From an uncultured delta proteobacterium (GTDB lineage Bacteria; Desulfobacterota; Syntrophia; Syntrophales; UBA2185): a DNA stretch of 64,000 nucleotides. Positions within the stretch are counted from its first letter, which is position 1; every line of letters begins with the position of its first letter. The position numbers and the translations under genes are program-made. Location of the stretch: positions 96,001-160,000 of the forward strand of contig CAVOID010000005.1 of assembly GCA_963695875.1 (NCBI GenBank), in the 5' to 3' direction. The notes under the pieces were generated by a model, which was not told where the DNA came from, ran no database searches, and saw only the letters and a list, made by a program, of their open reading frames with translations. Of this stretch, positions 24,795-52,417 are shown in pieces.

Positions 24795-26624
24795 TTAATT
24801 TCTCAATTCCTTACAAGCATTTCTATCGCCCAGTGAACAAGCTTTTTCCGTGTCTTTACGATATTGCAATTCATTACCCATTATACGATAAACGAGACCA
24901 CGGGCCCGATAAGACCCCACATCCAATGGATTCAAAGCGATAGTCTTGTTAAAATCCTCAAGAGCTTGATAAGATTTCCCTAACATTGCGTATGTAACTG
25001 CTCTTTGAAAATATGCATTTGCATTTTTATGATCACACTTTATTGCATTATCATAATCTTCAATAGCCTGATTGTAGAGCTGTATTGAAGAAAAAGCATT
25101 CCCACGTCCCTCGTATACAGAGCTCAAAAAAGAGTTATGCCTATCACATTTCGAAACAGATCCAAGAAATTGAGTATATTCTTTAATTGCATTCTGATAG
25201 TCGCCATTTAGAAGATACGCTTTACCACGACCATAAGAAGCCAAAATGATGTAGTTCTTTTCATCAAGTTGCTGTGCCTGGTTGAAATCGTCAATAGCTT
25301 GATCATACCGGCCCATATTAATCAAAGCATGCCCTCGACTAAGATAGGTACTACTATTGCTTGGATCTAAATAAATTGCTTTATTGTAATCTTCAAAAGC
25401 CTTAGAATGCAATCCTTTAGCATCATAGACTGTTCCTCGCGCTCTATAGATATCTGGATTCTTAGGCTTTATAGTAAGAGCCTTGCTGAACTCCTTGATA
25501 GCGTGATCATACAGGCCTTTTCCATTATAGATAGGTGCAAGGTGTGAATAATAGAGTGTATTGTCTGGATTAAGTGCGATCGCCTTTTTTAAATCATTAA
25601 TGGCCATGTCACGATCTCCTTTCTGCGAATATTCAAGTCCGCGGTGATCATAATAACTTGCCTCTTTAGGATTTAGGGCAATGGCACGATTATAATCTCT
25701 AATAGCCTTTTCAAGTTTGCCTATACTTCTATGTGCGTTACCACGGTGATCATAATACATTGCATTTTTAGGTTCTAGGGCAATGGCACGATTATAATCT
25801 TCAATAGCTAGAACATGATTGCCTTTCCATTCATATGCTAATCCCCGCTGATCGTAATACGACGCTTTTTTAGGTTCTAAAGCAATGGCACGACTATAAT
25901 CTTCAATAGCCAGATCATAATCATTTTTTGCATAATAATAGATAAAACCACGCAATGAATATGCAAACGCATTCCGGTTATCTAACGATAATGCAGCAGT
26001 GTAGGACTCAATTGCGTCATCGTAATCTTTATTCAAATATTCGCGTTTGCCCTTTTCAAGCAACTGATTGACATTGAAAAGATTTTCATCCTTGGTAACA
26101 TTTTCCTCGATTTGCTTCTTTTTCTCTGGGTTTTTTGTCTGTGCTAATTGTTTTTTGAGGATTTCTATTTCTTGCTGACTTTTCGCGTAGGCGTCCTGAA
26201 TCTTCTTGTAATCATCAACAATATTTCTTTCTTTCACACGCTTTGCCATATCAGATATTTTATCTGTCGTTACTTTTGCTCTGATTTTAATCCAGAAACG
26301 AATGCCTTCCCCTTCAATGGTTCTTTTCTTATCCAGCACGGCCACTTCCATTATACCGGACGCGATAACCTGAATCTCATCCTTTGATAATTGTAGATTT
26401 TCAACCTTAGAATAACTTTCCACATATGTTCCTGCTTCTTCCATGGCGGCTTGTTTAGCCTTTAATAGCGCACGACTTTCTGCAATGGTCGGTGTTTCTC
26501 CATCCCCCATGTTGTATGTACCTTCAGAAATTATTTCTTTTAACTCAGCGAAAACGAGTGCTGGATGAAGGAAAATAATCATAGATATAAAAATTGTGAT
26601 AATTATATTATAAATGGATTTCAT
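24795..26624 (-). CDS. Secreted TPR-repeat protein
   Basis: Signal peptide; many 34-aa repeats (AIEDYNRAIALEPKNA.YY..RG); ends KACSLG. Confidence 0.9.
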   Translation of the reverse strand: MKSIYNIIITIFISMIIFLHPALVFAELKEIISEGTYNMGDGETPTIAESRALLKAKQAAMEEAGTYVESYSKVENLQLSKDEIQVIASGIMEVAVLDKKRTIEGEGIRFWIKIRAKVTTDKISDMAKRVKERNIVDDYKKIQDAYAKSQQEIEILKKQLAQTKNPEKKKQIEENVTKDENLFNVNQLLEKGKREYLNKDYDDAIESYTAALSLDNRNAFAYSLRGFIYYYAKNDYDLAIEDYSRAIALEPKKASYYDQRGLAYEWKGNHVLAIEDYNRAIALEPKNAMYYDHRGNAHRSIGKLEKAIRDYNRAIALNPKEASYYDHRGLEYSQKGDRDMAINDLKKAIALNPDNTLYYSHLAPIYNGKGLYDHAIKEFSKALTIKPKNPDIYRARGTVYDAKGLHSKAFEDYNKAIYLDPSNSSTYLSRGHALINMGRYDQAIDDFNQAQQLDEKNYIILASYGRGKAYLLNGDYQNAIKEYTQFLGSVSKCDRHNSFLSSVYEGRGNAFSSIQLYNQAIEDYDNAIKCDHKNANAYFQRAVTYAMLGKSYQALEDFNKTIALNPLDVGSYRARGLVYRIMGNELQYRKDTEKACSLGDRNACKELRN

Positions 26625-26758
26625 TCAAACCTCCGAAGATGTCCGTTCTTGAACCTTTAAAAAAGATAAGCCTTTCCATTATGGTCGTATCGATAAATAG
26701 AGAAAGGGTGTTAAAGAAATTAGAAATCTCTTACAGATTATCTTTCAGTGATTTCACG

Positions 26759-26838
26759 AATTAAGGGGACACCATACTTAATTCCAGACTGAATCACCCC
26801 AGTGTACAAGAGATAATTGAGTATGGTGTCCCCTTAAT
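26759..26838. repeat. REP-like inverted repeat pair
   Basis: aattaaggggacaccatacttaatt ... aattgagtatggtgtccccttaatt; related half-sites at ~20652 and ~23158. Confidence 0.65.
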
Positions 26839-26849
26839 TATCAGTGGCC

Positions 26850-27446
26850 TCATTTCTTCTTATTTCTCTGGCTCCATAAGCTCGAAAGGTCGGCAAGAAG
26901 AGCCTTTGTATGGAATTCGGCCGAGAGATTAAACGCATGCGTACTTCGATCATAGTCATGTGTGATAATGTTGATAATAGTCTTGGACAGTTCTATCAAG
27001 TCCTTGAAATGGCGGTATTTAAGGTCTGCTTTCTTAAACGAGTCGTCGATGCTTCTCTCATCGCTTAAGTGGGCAAAGACCTCGGACCGGACAAAGCCGA
27101 TTTTGATCCATATTGGCTTTGCCTTTTGCATTAGCCCGGTGACACGGTTTTTCGCATCATCAGACAATGGGTGGTCACGGTCAAGGACTTTCAGCAATTG
27201 AGGAAGACTGATAGTGTCACGGCGGGTTTCGTATAGACGATACAAAGCTATAATCATGGCAACAAAATGGGCGTGTATTGATGTTTGAAAAAAAGCGAGG
27301 TATGTGTTCATGGCGTCAATGAATTTCGGACGAGTATCCCTACTTTTGTAAATCCACCAGATGTCATGATTGTGTTCAGCCGCTATGATGGTATCTTGAA
27401 TGCTCTTTATGTGGCTGTCGATTTTCTTCTGCATTGCGCCAGTCAT
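26850..27446 (-). CDS. AbiU2-like HEPN-domain protein
   Basis: IIALYRLYE...ISLPQL and RSEVFAH (Rx5H HEPN motif). Confidence 0.6.
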   Translation of the reverse strand: MTGAMQKKIDSHIKSIQDTIIAAEHNHDIWWIYKSRDTRPKFIDAMNTYLAFFQTSIHAHFVAMIIALYRLYETRRDTISLPQLLKVLDRDHPLSDDAKNRVTGLMQKAKPIWIKIGFVRSEVFAHLSDERSIDDSFKKADLKYRHFKDLIELSKTIINIITHDYDRSTHAFNLSAEFHTKALLADLSSLWSQRNKKK

Positions 27447-30609: not shown

Positions 30610-31658
30610 ATGATGCGAATTCTCCCTTTGGGTTTAGAAATGACCTCGCCGACAATAGCCGCCTCGGTTATGCCCCGCGCGTGCATCTTCCCGATTAATG
30701 TTTCCGCCTGCCTTTCAGGTAAAGCTATAAGCAGCCCTCCCGCAGTCTGCGGATCAAACATAACATCCACCATCCAATCAGGACAGGATGGATCAACCTC
30801 TATGAGTTTTGAGCGATATTGCCTATTCCTGTGCAAGCCCCCCGGCACAACCCCCTTCTCGACAAACTCCCGTATCTCGGAGAAAAAAGGAACGGAAGAT
30901 GCGTCAATCATCATGCCTACGTCGGAATTATCTATCATCTCACAGGCATGCCCCAGAAATCCAAAGCCGGTGATGTCTGTACAGGCATGAACATCAGGCA
31001 TTTCCTGCATGAGTTCTGCCGCATCCTTATTCAACGTGGTCATATACCTTACTGCTTTTGCCACCAGTTCCCCGCCCGCCAGCCCGCCCTTCAGCGCTGT
31101 GCTGACAATACCGGTACCTAACGGCTTGGTAAGGATCAGTTTGTCCCCTGCCTTTGCGCCTCTGTTAAGCAGGACCTTATCGGGGTGTATCACTCCGGTA
31201 ACGGAGAGACCGTACTTCGGTTCGTCGTCCTCAACACTGTGCCCCCCTATGAGAAGTACACCGGCCTCCCTCATCTTATCAAGTCCGCCATGGAGAATCC
31301 GATGAAGAATGGACATATCCATTTTTTTTACAGGGAAGCAGACGATGTTCATCGCTGTAAGCGGTCTTCCGCCCATGGCATAGACATCGCTAAGGGCATT
31401 AGTAACGGCAATCTGACCAAACGTATAAGGGTCATCCACGATAGGCGTAAAAAAATCCACCGTCTGGATAATAGCAAGATCATCGCGGAGTTTATAAACC
31501 CCTGCGTCCTCCGCGTGCTCCATCCCGACGATCAAATTCGGATCGGAAATCAACGGCAAATCTTTCAATGCTTCACTCAGGTCGCCCGGACCGATTTTGC
31601 AGGCTCAACCAGCCCCGTGAACCGTTTCGGTAAGGCGAATTCTTGATTTTTCTTCCAT
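30606..31658 (-). CDS. selD: Selenide, water dikinase SelD (selenoprotein, Sec18)
   Basis: ATG 31658: MEEKSRIRLTETVHGAG-U(TGA 31605-31607)-ACKIGP; DFFTPIVDDP, NALSDVYAMGG, DITGFG, DPQTAGG; GGTC-CGGGC-GACC hairpin 12 nt after the UGA. Confidence 0.95.
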
Positions 31659-48226: not shown

Positions 48227-49561
48227 ATGAGTCAAAAACTGGTTATTGTAGGAGGCGGGGCGGCAGGCCCATCATCGGCTGCCGAAGCCAAGAGAAGAAA
48301 CCCGTCTCTTGAAGTGACGATGGTCGAGAAGGGTGACTTTGTTTCCTACGCGGCCTGACCGATGCCCTATTACATCGGTGATGTAATCAAAGAATCAAAG
48401 AAGTTGGTTATCCGCACGCCGGAAGAATTCAAGAAAACGGGCATCGACGTAAAGATCAAGACACGCGTGGATGGTATCGATACCAAAAAGGGTTCTCTTT
48501 CTTTATCCGACGGCACGAGTCTTCCTTACGACCTCCTGGTCATGGCTACGGGGGCCGAAGCGAGCCGCCTGGATATTCCGGGCAGAGACCTGGAAGGCGT
48601 CTACGTCTTCAGGGACTTGACCGATGCCTTGAAGATGAAATCCTACCTGAACGAACAGGGCTGTAAGAAGGCAGTTCTGATCGGGGCAGGCTATATCGGC
48701 ATGGAGATGTGCGAGGCCCTGAGAAATCTGGGGATCGAAGTGAAGGTCATGGACATCCTGCCCCGGCCCACCGTACGGTGGGATGCCGAATTCACGAAGA
48801 TGATCGTGGAAGAGCTAGCCAAGAACCAGGTGGAGTTCCTTCCGGAGACGAAACCTCTAGCCATCGAAAAGGGGAAGGAATACCGGTTGAAACTGCAAAC
48901 CAGCGGCGGCGAACTGGATGCCGATCTCGTGCTGATGGGAGTGGGTACAAAGCGGAACGCCGTGCTTGCCGAATCTATGGGACTTGCCTTGGGTGAAAGC
49001 GGCGCCATCAAGGTGGATTTCCGGCAGAAGACATCCCGGGAAGGGGTCTATGCGGTGGGAGACTGCTGTGAGGTCTTCCACAAGGTCGCCGGAAGATGGG
49101 TCTATTTTCCTCTCGGCGATGTCGCCAACAAGCAGGGTCGTGTTGCCGGTCAGAACATCGGCGGTTATCCGGCAGAATTCCCGGGTATCGTGGGCGCCCA
49201 GGCCTTCAAGGTCTTCAACCTGGAGGTGGCTGCCACGGGACTTACGGAAGAGGAAGCCGCAAAATACGGGTTCCAGCCGGTGAGCGCCATGATCTGGGGT
49301 CTTCCTGTCGGCCGTCCCATGGCGAAAGGTGAAAAGCTGGGCGTGAAACTTGTCGGTGACAAAACGACGGGAAAACTTCTCGGCGGCCAGTGCATCGGTG
49401 AGAAAGGGGCCGTTCAACGGGTCAGCAGCCTTTCTGTTGCCCTGTGGGCGGGACTTTCCGTGGACGAGATCGGCTACCTTGATCTCCCATACGCGCCGCC
49501 CTTCGGAGGCGCCTGGGACGCCATCCACATCGCCGCCCAGTCTCTCAGGGGAAAGATGTAA
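48227..49561 (+). CDS. CoA-disulfide reductase / NADH oxidase-like flavoprotein (selenoprotein, Sec44)
   Basis: ATG 48227 after GGAGG; GGGAAG FAD motif; SYAA-U(TGA 48356-48358)-PMPY aligns with SYGACGLPY; hairpin ATTACATC-GGT-GATGTAAT after the UGA; GAGYIG, YAVGD, YAPP. Confidence 0.92.
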
Positions 49562-51423: not shown

Positions 51424-51640
51424 TTAAGGAGATCAAATGAAGAAAAAAGAGGCGAGGCGTTTTAGCTTGCCTCTTTTTATTTTGTCGGACTGAACTGTGA
51501 GATGTTTGAGTCAGCACACAACAACACGCTTTATCCCCTTTTCAAAATTATGACGTCAGTTGAGTTTATGAAGGACGTGTACAGATAATCTTTCATCTGA
51601 ACAGAGAATTTAAAACCCAGAATCATAAAGGAGGAATATC

Positions 51641-52348
51641 ATGAGCGAACCCACCATAATTGAGAAAGCATTTCATACCATCATGAAACGTATGGTAGAA
51701 ACCGGTCAGGCGCCCTTTTACACTGAGCTTGCCGCTGAACTCGGCCTTTCCGTTGAGGGAGGGCGGAAGGTGCTGCACGACCTTTTCTCCTCGGGAATCC
51801 CCGGATGGCTGTACCCCCGAACTGACCACATCGTCTCCTTTGCTCCGTTCAACAGCCTTCCGACACAATACAGGATCACCATCGACGGTCAGCAGAAATG
51901 GTTCGGCCAGTGAGCATTTGAATCGCTGGCGGTCTGCTGGCTATTCCCTGGCAAGACAGTGACAGTGGATTTCCCCTGTCTGGATTGCGGCGCTCCTCTC
52001 CGGGTGGCCATCCGGGACGGTATAGTTCTGAATAGTGAAGCCTCAGGGTACAAAGCCTATGTATCCGTGCCATTCTGGAAATGGTTTGAAGACCCGGGCT
52101 ATGCTTGAAGCACCATGACTCTCTTCCGGTCGGAAGAGCACGTCCGCAACTGGAAGTCCTTTGTCGAAGGCACCGACGAGGGCATCCTGTCAATGCCCGA
52201 TTTGCTCAAGCTGTTCTCCGGGCCTTTCTTCAGGCGGCGGATGGATGAAGACTATGTTTCCCACATGCGCGAATACGCCCGCGGGATGGTTGAAGCCATG
52301 AAAGAAATCGGCAAAACCGGCCCATTCTGGAAAAAGCCGAAAAATTGA
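51641..52348 (+). CDS. MerB-like (organomercurial lyase family) selenoprotein with two Sec residues
   Basis: One frame, 235 aa, with TGA at 51911 (WFGQ-U-AFES) and 52106 (GYA-U-STMTLFRSEEH); wHTH-like N-terminus, CLDC; hairpins after both UGAs. Confidence 0.88.
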
Positions 52349-52351
52349 TTC

Positions 52352-52417
52352 GGCCTTGTGTCGTGACAGGAATTGATTTCTGAAACCCCGCTCACTCATA
52401 AAGGAGCGGGGTTTTAT
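52352..52417 (+). terminator. Terminator-like hairpin, repeated at 58543-58608
   Basis: aaaccccgctc...gagcggggtttt. Confidence 0.65.

Follow-up and report, generated by a model that had tools for sequence, protein, structure and literature searches.

MerB and SaoL are the closest described relatives of the gene that we analyze here. In MerB, R-Hg+ is coordinated by the thiolates of Cys96 and Cys159, which weakens its Hg-C bond; the carbon receives a proton from Asp99, and the two cysteines retain Hg(II) until it is passed to MerA, while Cys117 is buried and structural (PMC10114901). SaoL is a MerB-like protein that was named 'selenocysteine-assisted organometallic lyase' and is captured by the model NF040728 (Haft & Gwadz, 10.1101/2022.07.06.499078). 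SaoL has one selenocysteine (Sec), which is found in a Cys-Sec dipeptide, retains Cys99 and Asp102, and is the marker of an SAO locus of nine genes that includes an ABC transporter (SaoABP), an efflux pump (SaoE) and others. In a 64,000-nt stretch of DNA from an uncultured delta proteobacterium (Syntrophales UBA2185; hereafter the window, to which all coordinates refer), we found a stand-alone gene at 51641..52348 on the forward strand that almost certainly encodes a genuine two-selenocysteine protein of the MerB fold, with Sec at the positions of both Cys96 and Cys159.

The single frame that runs from the ATG at 51641 to 52348 holds in-frame TGA codons at 51911-51913 and 52106-52108, and translation table 11 breaks it into open reading frames (ORFs) of 90, 49 and 77 aa. 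An earlier note on the window (the original prediction) had proposed that the ORF track splits one 235-aa frame with TGAs at 51911 and 52106, and we read the same frame. Each in-frame TGA is followed by a candidate selenocysteine insertion sequence (SECIS) hairpin. The features of the gene are as follows.

51641..52348, + strand: gene for the MerB-like selenoprotein; 235 codons and a stop, Sec encoded at residues 91 and 156
51911..51913, + strand: UGA-1, Sec91, the equivalent of MerB Cys96; TGA in 80 of 80 relatives
51920..51922, + strand: Glu94 codon GAA, at the site of the MerB proton donor Asp99
51925..51941, + strand: SECIS hairpin 1, GCTGGC/GGTCT/GCTGGC, a 6-bp stem with two G-U pairs and the loop GGUCU, 11 nt past UGA-1
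51977..51988, + strand: Cys113-x-x-Cys116 (PCLDCG), both cysteines invariant in the alignment of relatives
52106..52108, + strand: UGA-2, Sec156, the equivalent of MerB Cys159; TGA in 80 of 80 relatives
52121..52138, + strand: SECIS hairpin 2, CTCTTCC/GGTC/GGAAGAG, a perfect 7-bp stem with the loop GGUC, 12 nt past UGA-2
52346..52348, + strand: true stop TGA, with no SECIS-like hairpin behind it (63-nt fold, z 0.42)

To compare the protein with MerB, we ran profile searches in which Sec was written as Cys. The protein matches Pfam PF03243 (MerB) with 60 bits against a cut-off of 27, and residues 72-190 cover profile positions 3-119 of 126. When phmmer was run against PDB sequences, the protein aligned to MerB2 (5C17) and to E. 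coli MerB with U91 on Cys96, Glu94 on Asp99 and U156 on Cys159; the alignment to solved MerB structures thus agrees with the earlier assignment of Sec to both catalytic Cys sites and of Glu to the Asp99 site. Cys113 aligns with MerB Cys117, and Cys116 is extra relative to MerB. The curated MerB model NF033555 gave no match to the protein at E <= 1. An AlphaFold2 model that was built from a 46-row alignment has a mean pLDDT of 95.1 and a pTM of 0.90, and in a Foldseek search of the PDB all 11 matches at E <= 0.001 are MerB or MerB2 chains, with best TM-scores against MerB chains of 0.65 (query-normalised) and 0.73 (target-normalised). Weak winged-helix matches come from the three N-terminal helices (EutK_C, E = 0.074; LexA- and DtxR-type chains from Foldseek rank 12 onward, E > 0.06). 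The modeled fold is that of MerB. We aligned the protein with 120 of the 173 matches from a word-indexed protein search, and among these 121 rows (the window's own protein included) position 94 is Glu in 115 and Asp in 5. A carboxylate is therefore kept in 120 of 121 proteins, which argues for proton-transfer chemistry and not for mere binding, and a Glu codon is found at this position in all 80 genomic loci described below.

The predicted fold is shared with MerB (E. coli plasmid R831b, PDB 3F0P/3F2F) and MerB2 (Bacillus megaterium, PDB 5C17), as are the metal-ligand and acid positions, the N-terminal helical domain and a Cys equivalent to Cys117. However, the window protein is only about 20% identical to these proteins, it lacks Cys160, it has the extra Cys116, and it carries a longer conserved C-terminal segment that ends in GKTGPFW. 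The triad that defines MerB, Cys96/Asp99/Cys159, is replaced by Sec/Glu/Sec, residues that are chemically analogous to the defining ones but are not the same. In contrast to canonical MerB, the gene is found without a merA/merR/merT context in an assembly that is 82.6% complete.

SaoL resembles the window protein in that it is a PF03243 selenoprotein of strict anaerobes with Sec at the MerB Cys159 position, and its gene is chromosomal, is not part of a mer operon and appears in databases cut short at the UGA. In contrast to the single Sec, Cys99 and Asp102 of SaoL, the window protein has two Sec and Glu. The residue before Sec156 is Ala in the window protein and Ala, Ser or Thr in 80 of 80 loci, whereas it is Cys in SaoL, and the window gene lacks conserved neighbors where SaoL marks its nine-gene locus. 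None of the nine-gene SAO neighborhood was found in the window or among the 40 representatives of recurrent neighbor clusters that we scanned. The original prediction had pointed to SaoL as a known Sec-containing MerB homologue; we found that the window protein is related to SaoL but is not the same, since it scores 30.8 bits against the NF040728 cut-off of 140. The phrase 'two selenocysteine' in the same preprint refers to the SaoP permease, which is no relative of MerB (10.1101/2022.07.06.499078).

Much closer relatives are found in the same uncurated clade, in which members with Cys at residue 91 and Sec or Cys at residue 156 (C/U, e.g. P0044, P0064 and P0112; C/C, e.g. P0042 and P0050) are 46-84% identical to the window protein. 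These members share the Glu and the CxxC, and Sec156 is present in nearly all of them; they differ by having Cys at 91. A published MerB census screens for Cys96/Asp99/Cys159/Cys117 and, in the part of its text that was available, does not mention selenocysteine (Christakis et al., PMC8261052), and the window's family does not carry this signature. Prokaryotic selenoprotein catalogues from 2022 and 2026, as far as their text was available, list only SaoL/MerB-like proteins, the 2026 one with 1 Sec. Within the full-text literature that we searched for MerB with selenoprotein or selenocysteine, much of it available in part, a two-Sec MerB is described nowhere, and the two-Sec MerB-like family is to that extent undescribed in print.

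To determine whether the two TGA codons are real, we looked at what relatives carry at the same positions. In the 121 rows, position 91 is C in 63 (one of which is the C-for-U of the query), W in 55, S in 1, G in 1 and a gap in 1, and position 156 is a gap in 63, W in 54, C in 3 (one of which is the query) and P in 1. Sixty of the 63 rows with a gap at position 156 are C/U entries that end exactly at residue 155. The W/W database entries lie on short metagenome contigs and fit what a TGA=Trp gene-calling code would produce. When we scanned species-representative genomes, at least 564 stretches, from 597 pattern matches, encode relatives, and we read the codons in 80 loci retained from these, which come from the genomes of different species and are 62-87% identical to the window protein. 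TGA is present at both sites in 80 of 80 loci, and the frame is conserved through and past each TGA. The first stop past UGA-2 in these relatives is TAA in 35, TAG in 23 and TGA in 21, and one locus ran off the end.

Across the phylum, we used an even set of 401 genomes and a match threshold of E <= 1e-10, and 46 of the 401 genomes have a match. At an identity of 41% or more there are 44 places, in 39 genomes; 43 of these have two or more in-frame TGAs and one has a TGA plus a TAA. Distant full-length relatives (23-40% identity) have Cys at both sites. An exhaustive library search gave 665 matches at E <= 0.001; of the best 150 library representatives, 45 stop at query residue 90 and 20 at residue 155, and another 12 begin at residues 157-160. 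Databases thus hold the MerB-like gene as pieces that are broken at both TGA codons, under the names 'hypothetical protein' or 'Alkylmercury lyase'. In three public metagenome runs, from freshwater sediment and peat, the contigs that cover the gene agree with it at both TGAs, and one public contig that spans 51899-52150, with both TGAs included, has 0 differences. The original prediction hung on the residues that homologues carry at both sites, where we found Cys or TGA, and on the TGAs not being sequencing errors, and independent assemblies keep both of them. Conservation and assembly comparisons together indicate that neither TGA is an error.

Bacterial SECIS elements are stem-loops that start from about 11 nt after the UGA and have G-U in the apical loop, as in E. 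coli fdhF and the bSECISearch literature. The GGUC-type loop and the 11-12 nt spacing of both hairpins presumably agree with the fdhF SECIS. The earlier proposal of a hairpin with a GGT loop about 11-12 nt past each TGA holds in its coordinates, and comparison adds support to it. In single-sequence folding, the 63-nt pieces after TGA1 and TGA2 fold no better than shuffles (z 0.10 and –0.34), and the short hairpins are not the minimum-energy structure of their 63-nt pieces. Because the hairpins are unremarkable alone in single folds, we took support from comparison among 81 sequences. For hairpin 2, 97.2% of cells are paired, compensatory changes occur at the two basal pairs (UA replaces CG in 9 sequences, GC replaces UA in 3), and no shuffle out of 500 attains the observed covariation score. 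For hairpin 1 the paired share is 98.9%, but double changes are absent and its pair count equals that of shuffles; since this helix hardly varies, the pair count is uninformative either way.

Synonymous codons distinguish both hairpins from the rest of the gene. Mean relative synonymous-codon entropy is 0.237 over the 12 hairpin codons as compared to 0.844 over the 115 codons outside (Mann-Whitney p = 9e-8). In hairpin 1, Ser95 is TCG in 74 of 77 sequences and Cys99 is TGC in 74 of 74; in hairpin 2, Phe162 is TTC in 81 of 81, Arg163 is CGG in 81 of 81 and Ser164 is TCG in 80 of 80. Outside both hairpins, all synonymous codons occur. This dip in synonymous diversity at both hairpins shows that selection acts on the RNA. 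Rfam has no match at the MerB-like gene at the gathering threshold, and at E <= 10 it gives only chance-level matches (mir-30, HgcC and sR30), with no model that covers the hairpins.

Summed contig depth in public peat and sediment assemblies spikes over 51892-51932 and 52097-52137, the two SECIS segments; in run X2 it reaches up to 1679 over these segments as compared to tens elsewhere in the gene. Contigs from many different organisms share the nucleotides of both segments.

To follow the two Sec positions through the family, we masked column 91 and built a FastTree tree of 114 members over residues 1-155. The remaining seven of the 121 rows were excluded, four because they show other letters or gaps at the two sites and three because the N-terminus is missing. 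In the tree, 52 members are U/U, 60 are C/U and 2 are C/C at residues 91/156, proportions of U/U to C/U that are biased by the behavior of gene callers; the genomic DNA that we read at the loci showed U/U forms alone. U/U and C/U members are intermixed in the tree, and a minimum of 7-8 switches is required by well-supported branches; the window protein groups with one U/U and one C/U relative with 98% local support. Judged from this tree, Sec156 is nearly fixed and Sec91 has been gained and lost repeatedly. Because the two forms interleave with so many switches, the second Sec does not define a family of its own but is an upgrade that recurs and can be reversed. The double-Sec design that had been proposed therefore stands for the window protein, in which both sites are Sec, but does not extend to all of its close relatives, among which position 91 toggles between Sec and Cys.

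The 80 loci are mostly from Thermodesulfobacteriota (Syntrophia 16, Desulfobacteria 11, Syntrophobacteria 5, Desulfomonilia 3 and Desulfarculia 2), along with many metagenome-assembled genomes (MAGs) named 'delta proteobacterium' and one locus each from Dehalococcoidia, Poribacteria and Abyssobacteria. The gene is present in peat, sediment and wetland metagenomes. Among 19 distant relatives, none reaches the curated MerB or the SaoL cut-off. Several genomes have two copies of the two-Sec gene (G327, G388, G384, G169, G297, and the genome with loci L028 and L029); L028 and L029 lie about 7 kb apart on one contig of one MAG. In a distant relative, P0270 (326 aa), a Cys/Cys MerB-like domain is fused to a C-terminal LuxR/GerE-type helix-turn-helix (HTH), a fusion that hints that some members of the wider clade may act as ligand-sensing regulators.

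The original prediction had also turned on whether the genome has selA, selB and selC, and we found that all of them are present, plus selD. The tRNA-Sec gene (selC) scores 76.2 bits against a gathering score of 47, SelA scores 609 bits, and SelB is found in two adjacent pieces with 207 and 164 bits, which together exceed the cut-off. The SelB pieces lie at 79843-81742 (–) of contig C9 with a slight overlap and cover model positions 1-105 and 99-581; the split could come from a frameshift, either in the gene itself or introduced by the assembly. The Sec-type SelD that had been noticed in the window is seen at the following place, and it belongs to the Sec system that the MerB-like gene needs.

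30708..31637, – strand: selD, selenophosphate synthetase, TIGR00476 with 395.5 bits against a cut-off of 125, with one in-frame TGA

A second gene in the window, for a Nox/CoA-disulfide-reductase-type (Nox/CoADR-type) flavoprotein at 48227-49561 (+), has an in-frame TGA at 48356-48358, which corresponds to Sec at the single redox-active Cys position (SYAA-U-P), and table 11 breaks it into ORFs of 43 aa and 399 aa. A crude scan of the window for other genes with in-frame TGAs gave 77 candidates, most of them spurious.

For the surroundings of the MerB-like gene, we called genes in 81 loci, clustered them, and annotated 40 representatives of the clusters that are present in at least 3 loci. When fragments of the MerB-like gene itself and an antisense ORF are set aside, the commonest neighbor cluster is a Nox/CoADR-type flavoprotein in 10 of 81 loci, followed by a C_GCAxxG_C_C protein in 9, an acyl-CoA dehydrogenase in 8, an HpaB-like protein in 7 and a molybdopterin oxidoreductase in 7. 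These recurrent neighbors are synteny among close Syntrophales kin, and no mer gene, SAO transporter or common theme was found among them. The absence of merA, merR and merT nearby, which had been claimed before, is also what we saw, with no mer genes among the neighbors in the window. In the window's genome, a second PF03243 gene was not found; there is only the one.

We also looked at the HgcA and HgcB proteins. An HgcA-type protein that carries the cap-helix motif is encoded in the window's genome, an HgcB-like ferredoxin comes after it, and the organism is a putative mercury methylator. The HgcA-type gene is found at about 25385-27100 (+) of contig C3, with the cap-helix motif at C3:25808-25831; the ferredoxin downstream is of the two-[4Fe-4S] type, and its frame ends ...SCC just before a TGA. 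Most HgcA proteins are reported to have a Cys-Sec N-terminal extension (Haft & Gwadz, bioRxiv 10.1101/2022.07.06.499078), and no in-frame TGA was seen upstream in the HgcA frame of the window's genome. A degenerate DNA pattern for the HgcA motif hits 112 of the 401 phylum-sample genomes, as compared to 0 for a reversed control pattern. The motif is present in 18 of the 39 carriers of the MerB-like gene as compared to 94 of the 362 non-carriers, a co-occurrence that was cross-tabulated by hand with statistics that ignore kinship and is a lead only.

Between 40013 and 45786, the window has a run of genes of the sulfur- and selenium-handling type: a ferredoxin-domain protein, an ArsS-type radical SAM protein (DUF3641), a DUF3047 protein, a class-V aminotransferase (cysteine desulfurase / selenocysteine lyase type), a TusA-DsrE fusion and a NifU-like protein.

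Around the MerB-like gene itself, we found these signals for transcription and translation.

51454..51473: terminator-like hairpin with a T-run that closes the upstream HpaB-like gene; a consensus match only, with counts not above those in shuffles
51560..51589, + strand: promoter-like site TTGAGT / 18-nt spacer / GATAAT; a consensus match only, with counts no higher than in shuffles
51629..51634, + strand: Shine-Dalgarno AGGAGG, 6 nt 5' of the ATG, read from the sequence
52386..52415, + strand: terminator-like GC-rich hairpin CCCCGCTC / 10-nt loop / GAGCGGGG then TTTT, read by eye

The terminator scanner did not call the hairpin at 52386-52415, which has a loop of more than 8 nt and only 4 T. 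Since a terminator-like hairpin ends the upstream gene, a promoter-like site is found 5' of the gene, and a hairpin with TTTT follows the stop, these signals suggest that the MerB-like gene may be its own transcription unit.

The sequence comparisons show an intact gene with selection on both UGAs and both hairpins, and its triad positions match those of MerB. For the catalysis, the substrate and the fate of the metal product, we infer a stand-alone diselenolate carbon-metal lyase of the MerB fold with methylmercury (MeHg) as the most likely substrate, and we give this statement as a whole a probability of about 50%. The two UGAs would each be recoded by their own in-frame SECIS hairpin through SelA, SelB, tRNA-Sec and SelD. 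At neutral pH, selenols are present as deprotonated selenolates, which have a higher affinity for soft metals than thiolates. The two selenolates at the Cys96 and Cys159 positions would clamp the metal or metalloid atom of the substrate and weaken the carbon-metal bond, Glu94 at the Asp99 position would protonate the leaving carbon, and the hydrocarbon would depart. The metal ion would remain on the diselenolate until a thiol or selenol acceptor takes it; without MerA, the metal would have to leave to such an acceptor, or as sulfide or selenide. The enzyme would act without partners in the cytosol of strict anaerobes that have no MerA, many of them mercury methylators themselves. A protonolytic lyase is suggested because Sec/Glu/Sec occupy the MerB triad positions, the fold is MerB-like and the acid is kept in the family. 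Methylmercury is the leading candidate because its cleavage is the only known activity of the fold, because the habitats are peat, sediment and wetland, and because of the link to hgcA; abiotic MeHg demethylation by selenoamino acids is known (PMC10114901).

Several observations weigh against this lyase. The turnover of a very tightly bound Hg(II)-diselenolate would be hard to account for without MerA, and in the 82.6%-complete genome the best MerA match is below the cut-off (345 bits as compared to 454) and MerT has no match. The protein misses the cut-off of the curated MerB model NF009710 (EC 4.99.1.2) with 26.5 bits as compared to 193, no conserved partner gene was found over the 81 loci, and the MerB fold also serves plain metal binding in NosL (PMC10114901). 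The link to hgcA is a modest enrichment that is not obligate and is confounded by kinship, and 21 of the 39 carriers lack the motif.

The most basic alternative, that the gene is an artefact or a pseudogene whose TGAs are sequencing errors, nonsense mutations or codons read as Trp, has next to no probability. It would account for the splitting of the gene under table 11, for W at both sites in many database entries and for single-sequence hairpin folds that are no better than shuffles, but TGA/TGA is found in 80 of 80 relatives with protein conservation across and after both sites, independent assemblies agree on both TGAs, and distant relatives have Cys, not Trp, at both sites. TGA=Trp recoding and sequencing error are rejected by these conserved TGAs and Cys homologues, by the nucleotide-level selection on the SECIS hairpins and by the complete Sec machinery. 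A different objection concerns the substrate: the same mechanism could act on organoarsenic, organotin or organolead compounds, on methylated Se or Te, or on a carbon-chalcogen compound, as the original prediction preferred. We consider this rather unlikely. No mer context is found at any locus or in the genome, the HgcA motif is missing in 21 of 39 sampled carriers, and the Asp99-to-Glu swap and the second Sec may reshape the pocket relative to MerB; Sec at the metal-contacting site may also shift the substrate range of MerB-like proteins, as has been proposed (Haft & Gwadz, 10.1101/2022.07.06.499078). The window does have an ArsS-type radical SAM gene (DUF3641) and a TehB-like methyltransferase gene, but these arsenic- and tellurite-type genes are at a distance of 6-10 kb and are not seen again in the other 80 loci. 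Nothing positive points to any particular non-mercury substrate, and mercury is the only metal for which lyase activity has been shown for this fold (PMC10114901).

The protein might also not be an enzyme. On one decidedly unlikely reading it binds soft metals without catalysis, as a chaperone or sink in the cytosol whose selenolates and carboxylate would keep hold of Hg(II), Cu(I), Cd(II) or a similar ion, for instance as protection for a cell that methylates mercury or for transfer of Hg to HgcAB. The Cu(I)-binding protein NosL has the MerB fold and D99S MerB binds copper (PMC10114901), the gene stands alone without a MerA partner and co-occurs modestly with hgcA, and a diselenolate grip on Hg would be extremely tight, which would make release, and hence turnover, hard. 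However, a simple binder would not need the carboxylate that is kept at the proton-donor site in 120 of 121 proteins, the price of two Sec insertions is more typical of catalysis, and free swapping of Sec and Cys at 91 suggests a tuning of reactivity and not maximal affinity. Quite improbable, in our view, is a redox enzyme that forms a diselenide, or a selenenylsulfide with Cys116, or a regulator that senses a ligand through the N-terminal winged-helix-like domain. Thiol/selenol redox genes do lie near the gene in the window and its close kin (the Sec Nox/CoADR-like flavoprotein, a C_GCAxxG_C_C protein and a CoADR-rhodanese), but they are kept only among close kin, in at most 10 of 81 loci. 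The CxxC at residues 113-116 is invariant, but Cys113 aligns with the buried structural Cys117 of MerB. The weak winged-helix matches (EutK_C, LexA- and DtxR-type) and the fusion of a MerB-like domain to a LuxR-type HTH in P0270 would fit a sensor, but canonical MerB, which is an enzyme, has the same N-terminal domain, and no operator-like repeat was noticed, though no search for one was made.

The design is uncommon: two Sec that are 65 residues apart, each with its own SECIS in the coding region, occupy sites that bind a single metal atom in MerB, and the natural switching between Sec and Cys at one of these sites is a ready-made series on what the second selenium adds. The gene is split by gene callers and would be screened out by signature-based merB censuses, and full-length reference sequences could be supplied to annotation pipelines. 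Net methylmercury in wetlands, rice paddies and sediments hinges on demethylation as much as on methylation. Anaerobic mer-independent demethylation has long been recognised, and its mechanism is only starting to be worked out (PMC10114901). A MerB-fold gene that is widespread, with at least 564 relatives in species-representative genomes, is found in those very organisms and habitats. As a tentative possibility, the family may demethylate methylmercury independently of mer in anaerobes (Syntrophia, Desulfobacteria and related groups), many of which are hgcAB methylators, in which case the second Sec would have been added and lost repeatedly as selenium supply or mercury load changed. If so, standard merB surveys, which look for Cys96/Asp99/Cys159, would miss a major control on net methylmercury, MeHg in peat, sediment and groundwater would be cleaved with no need of MerA, and the availability of selenium would affect mercury cycling by way of this enzyme.

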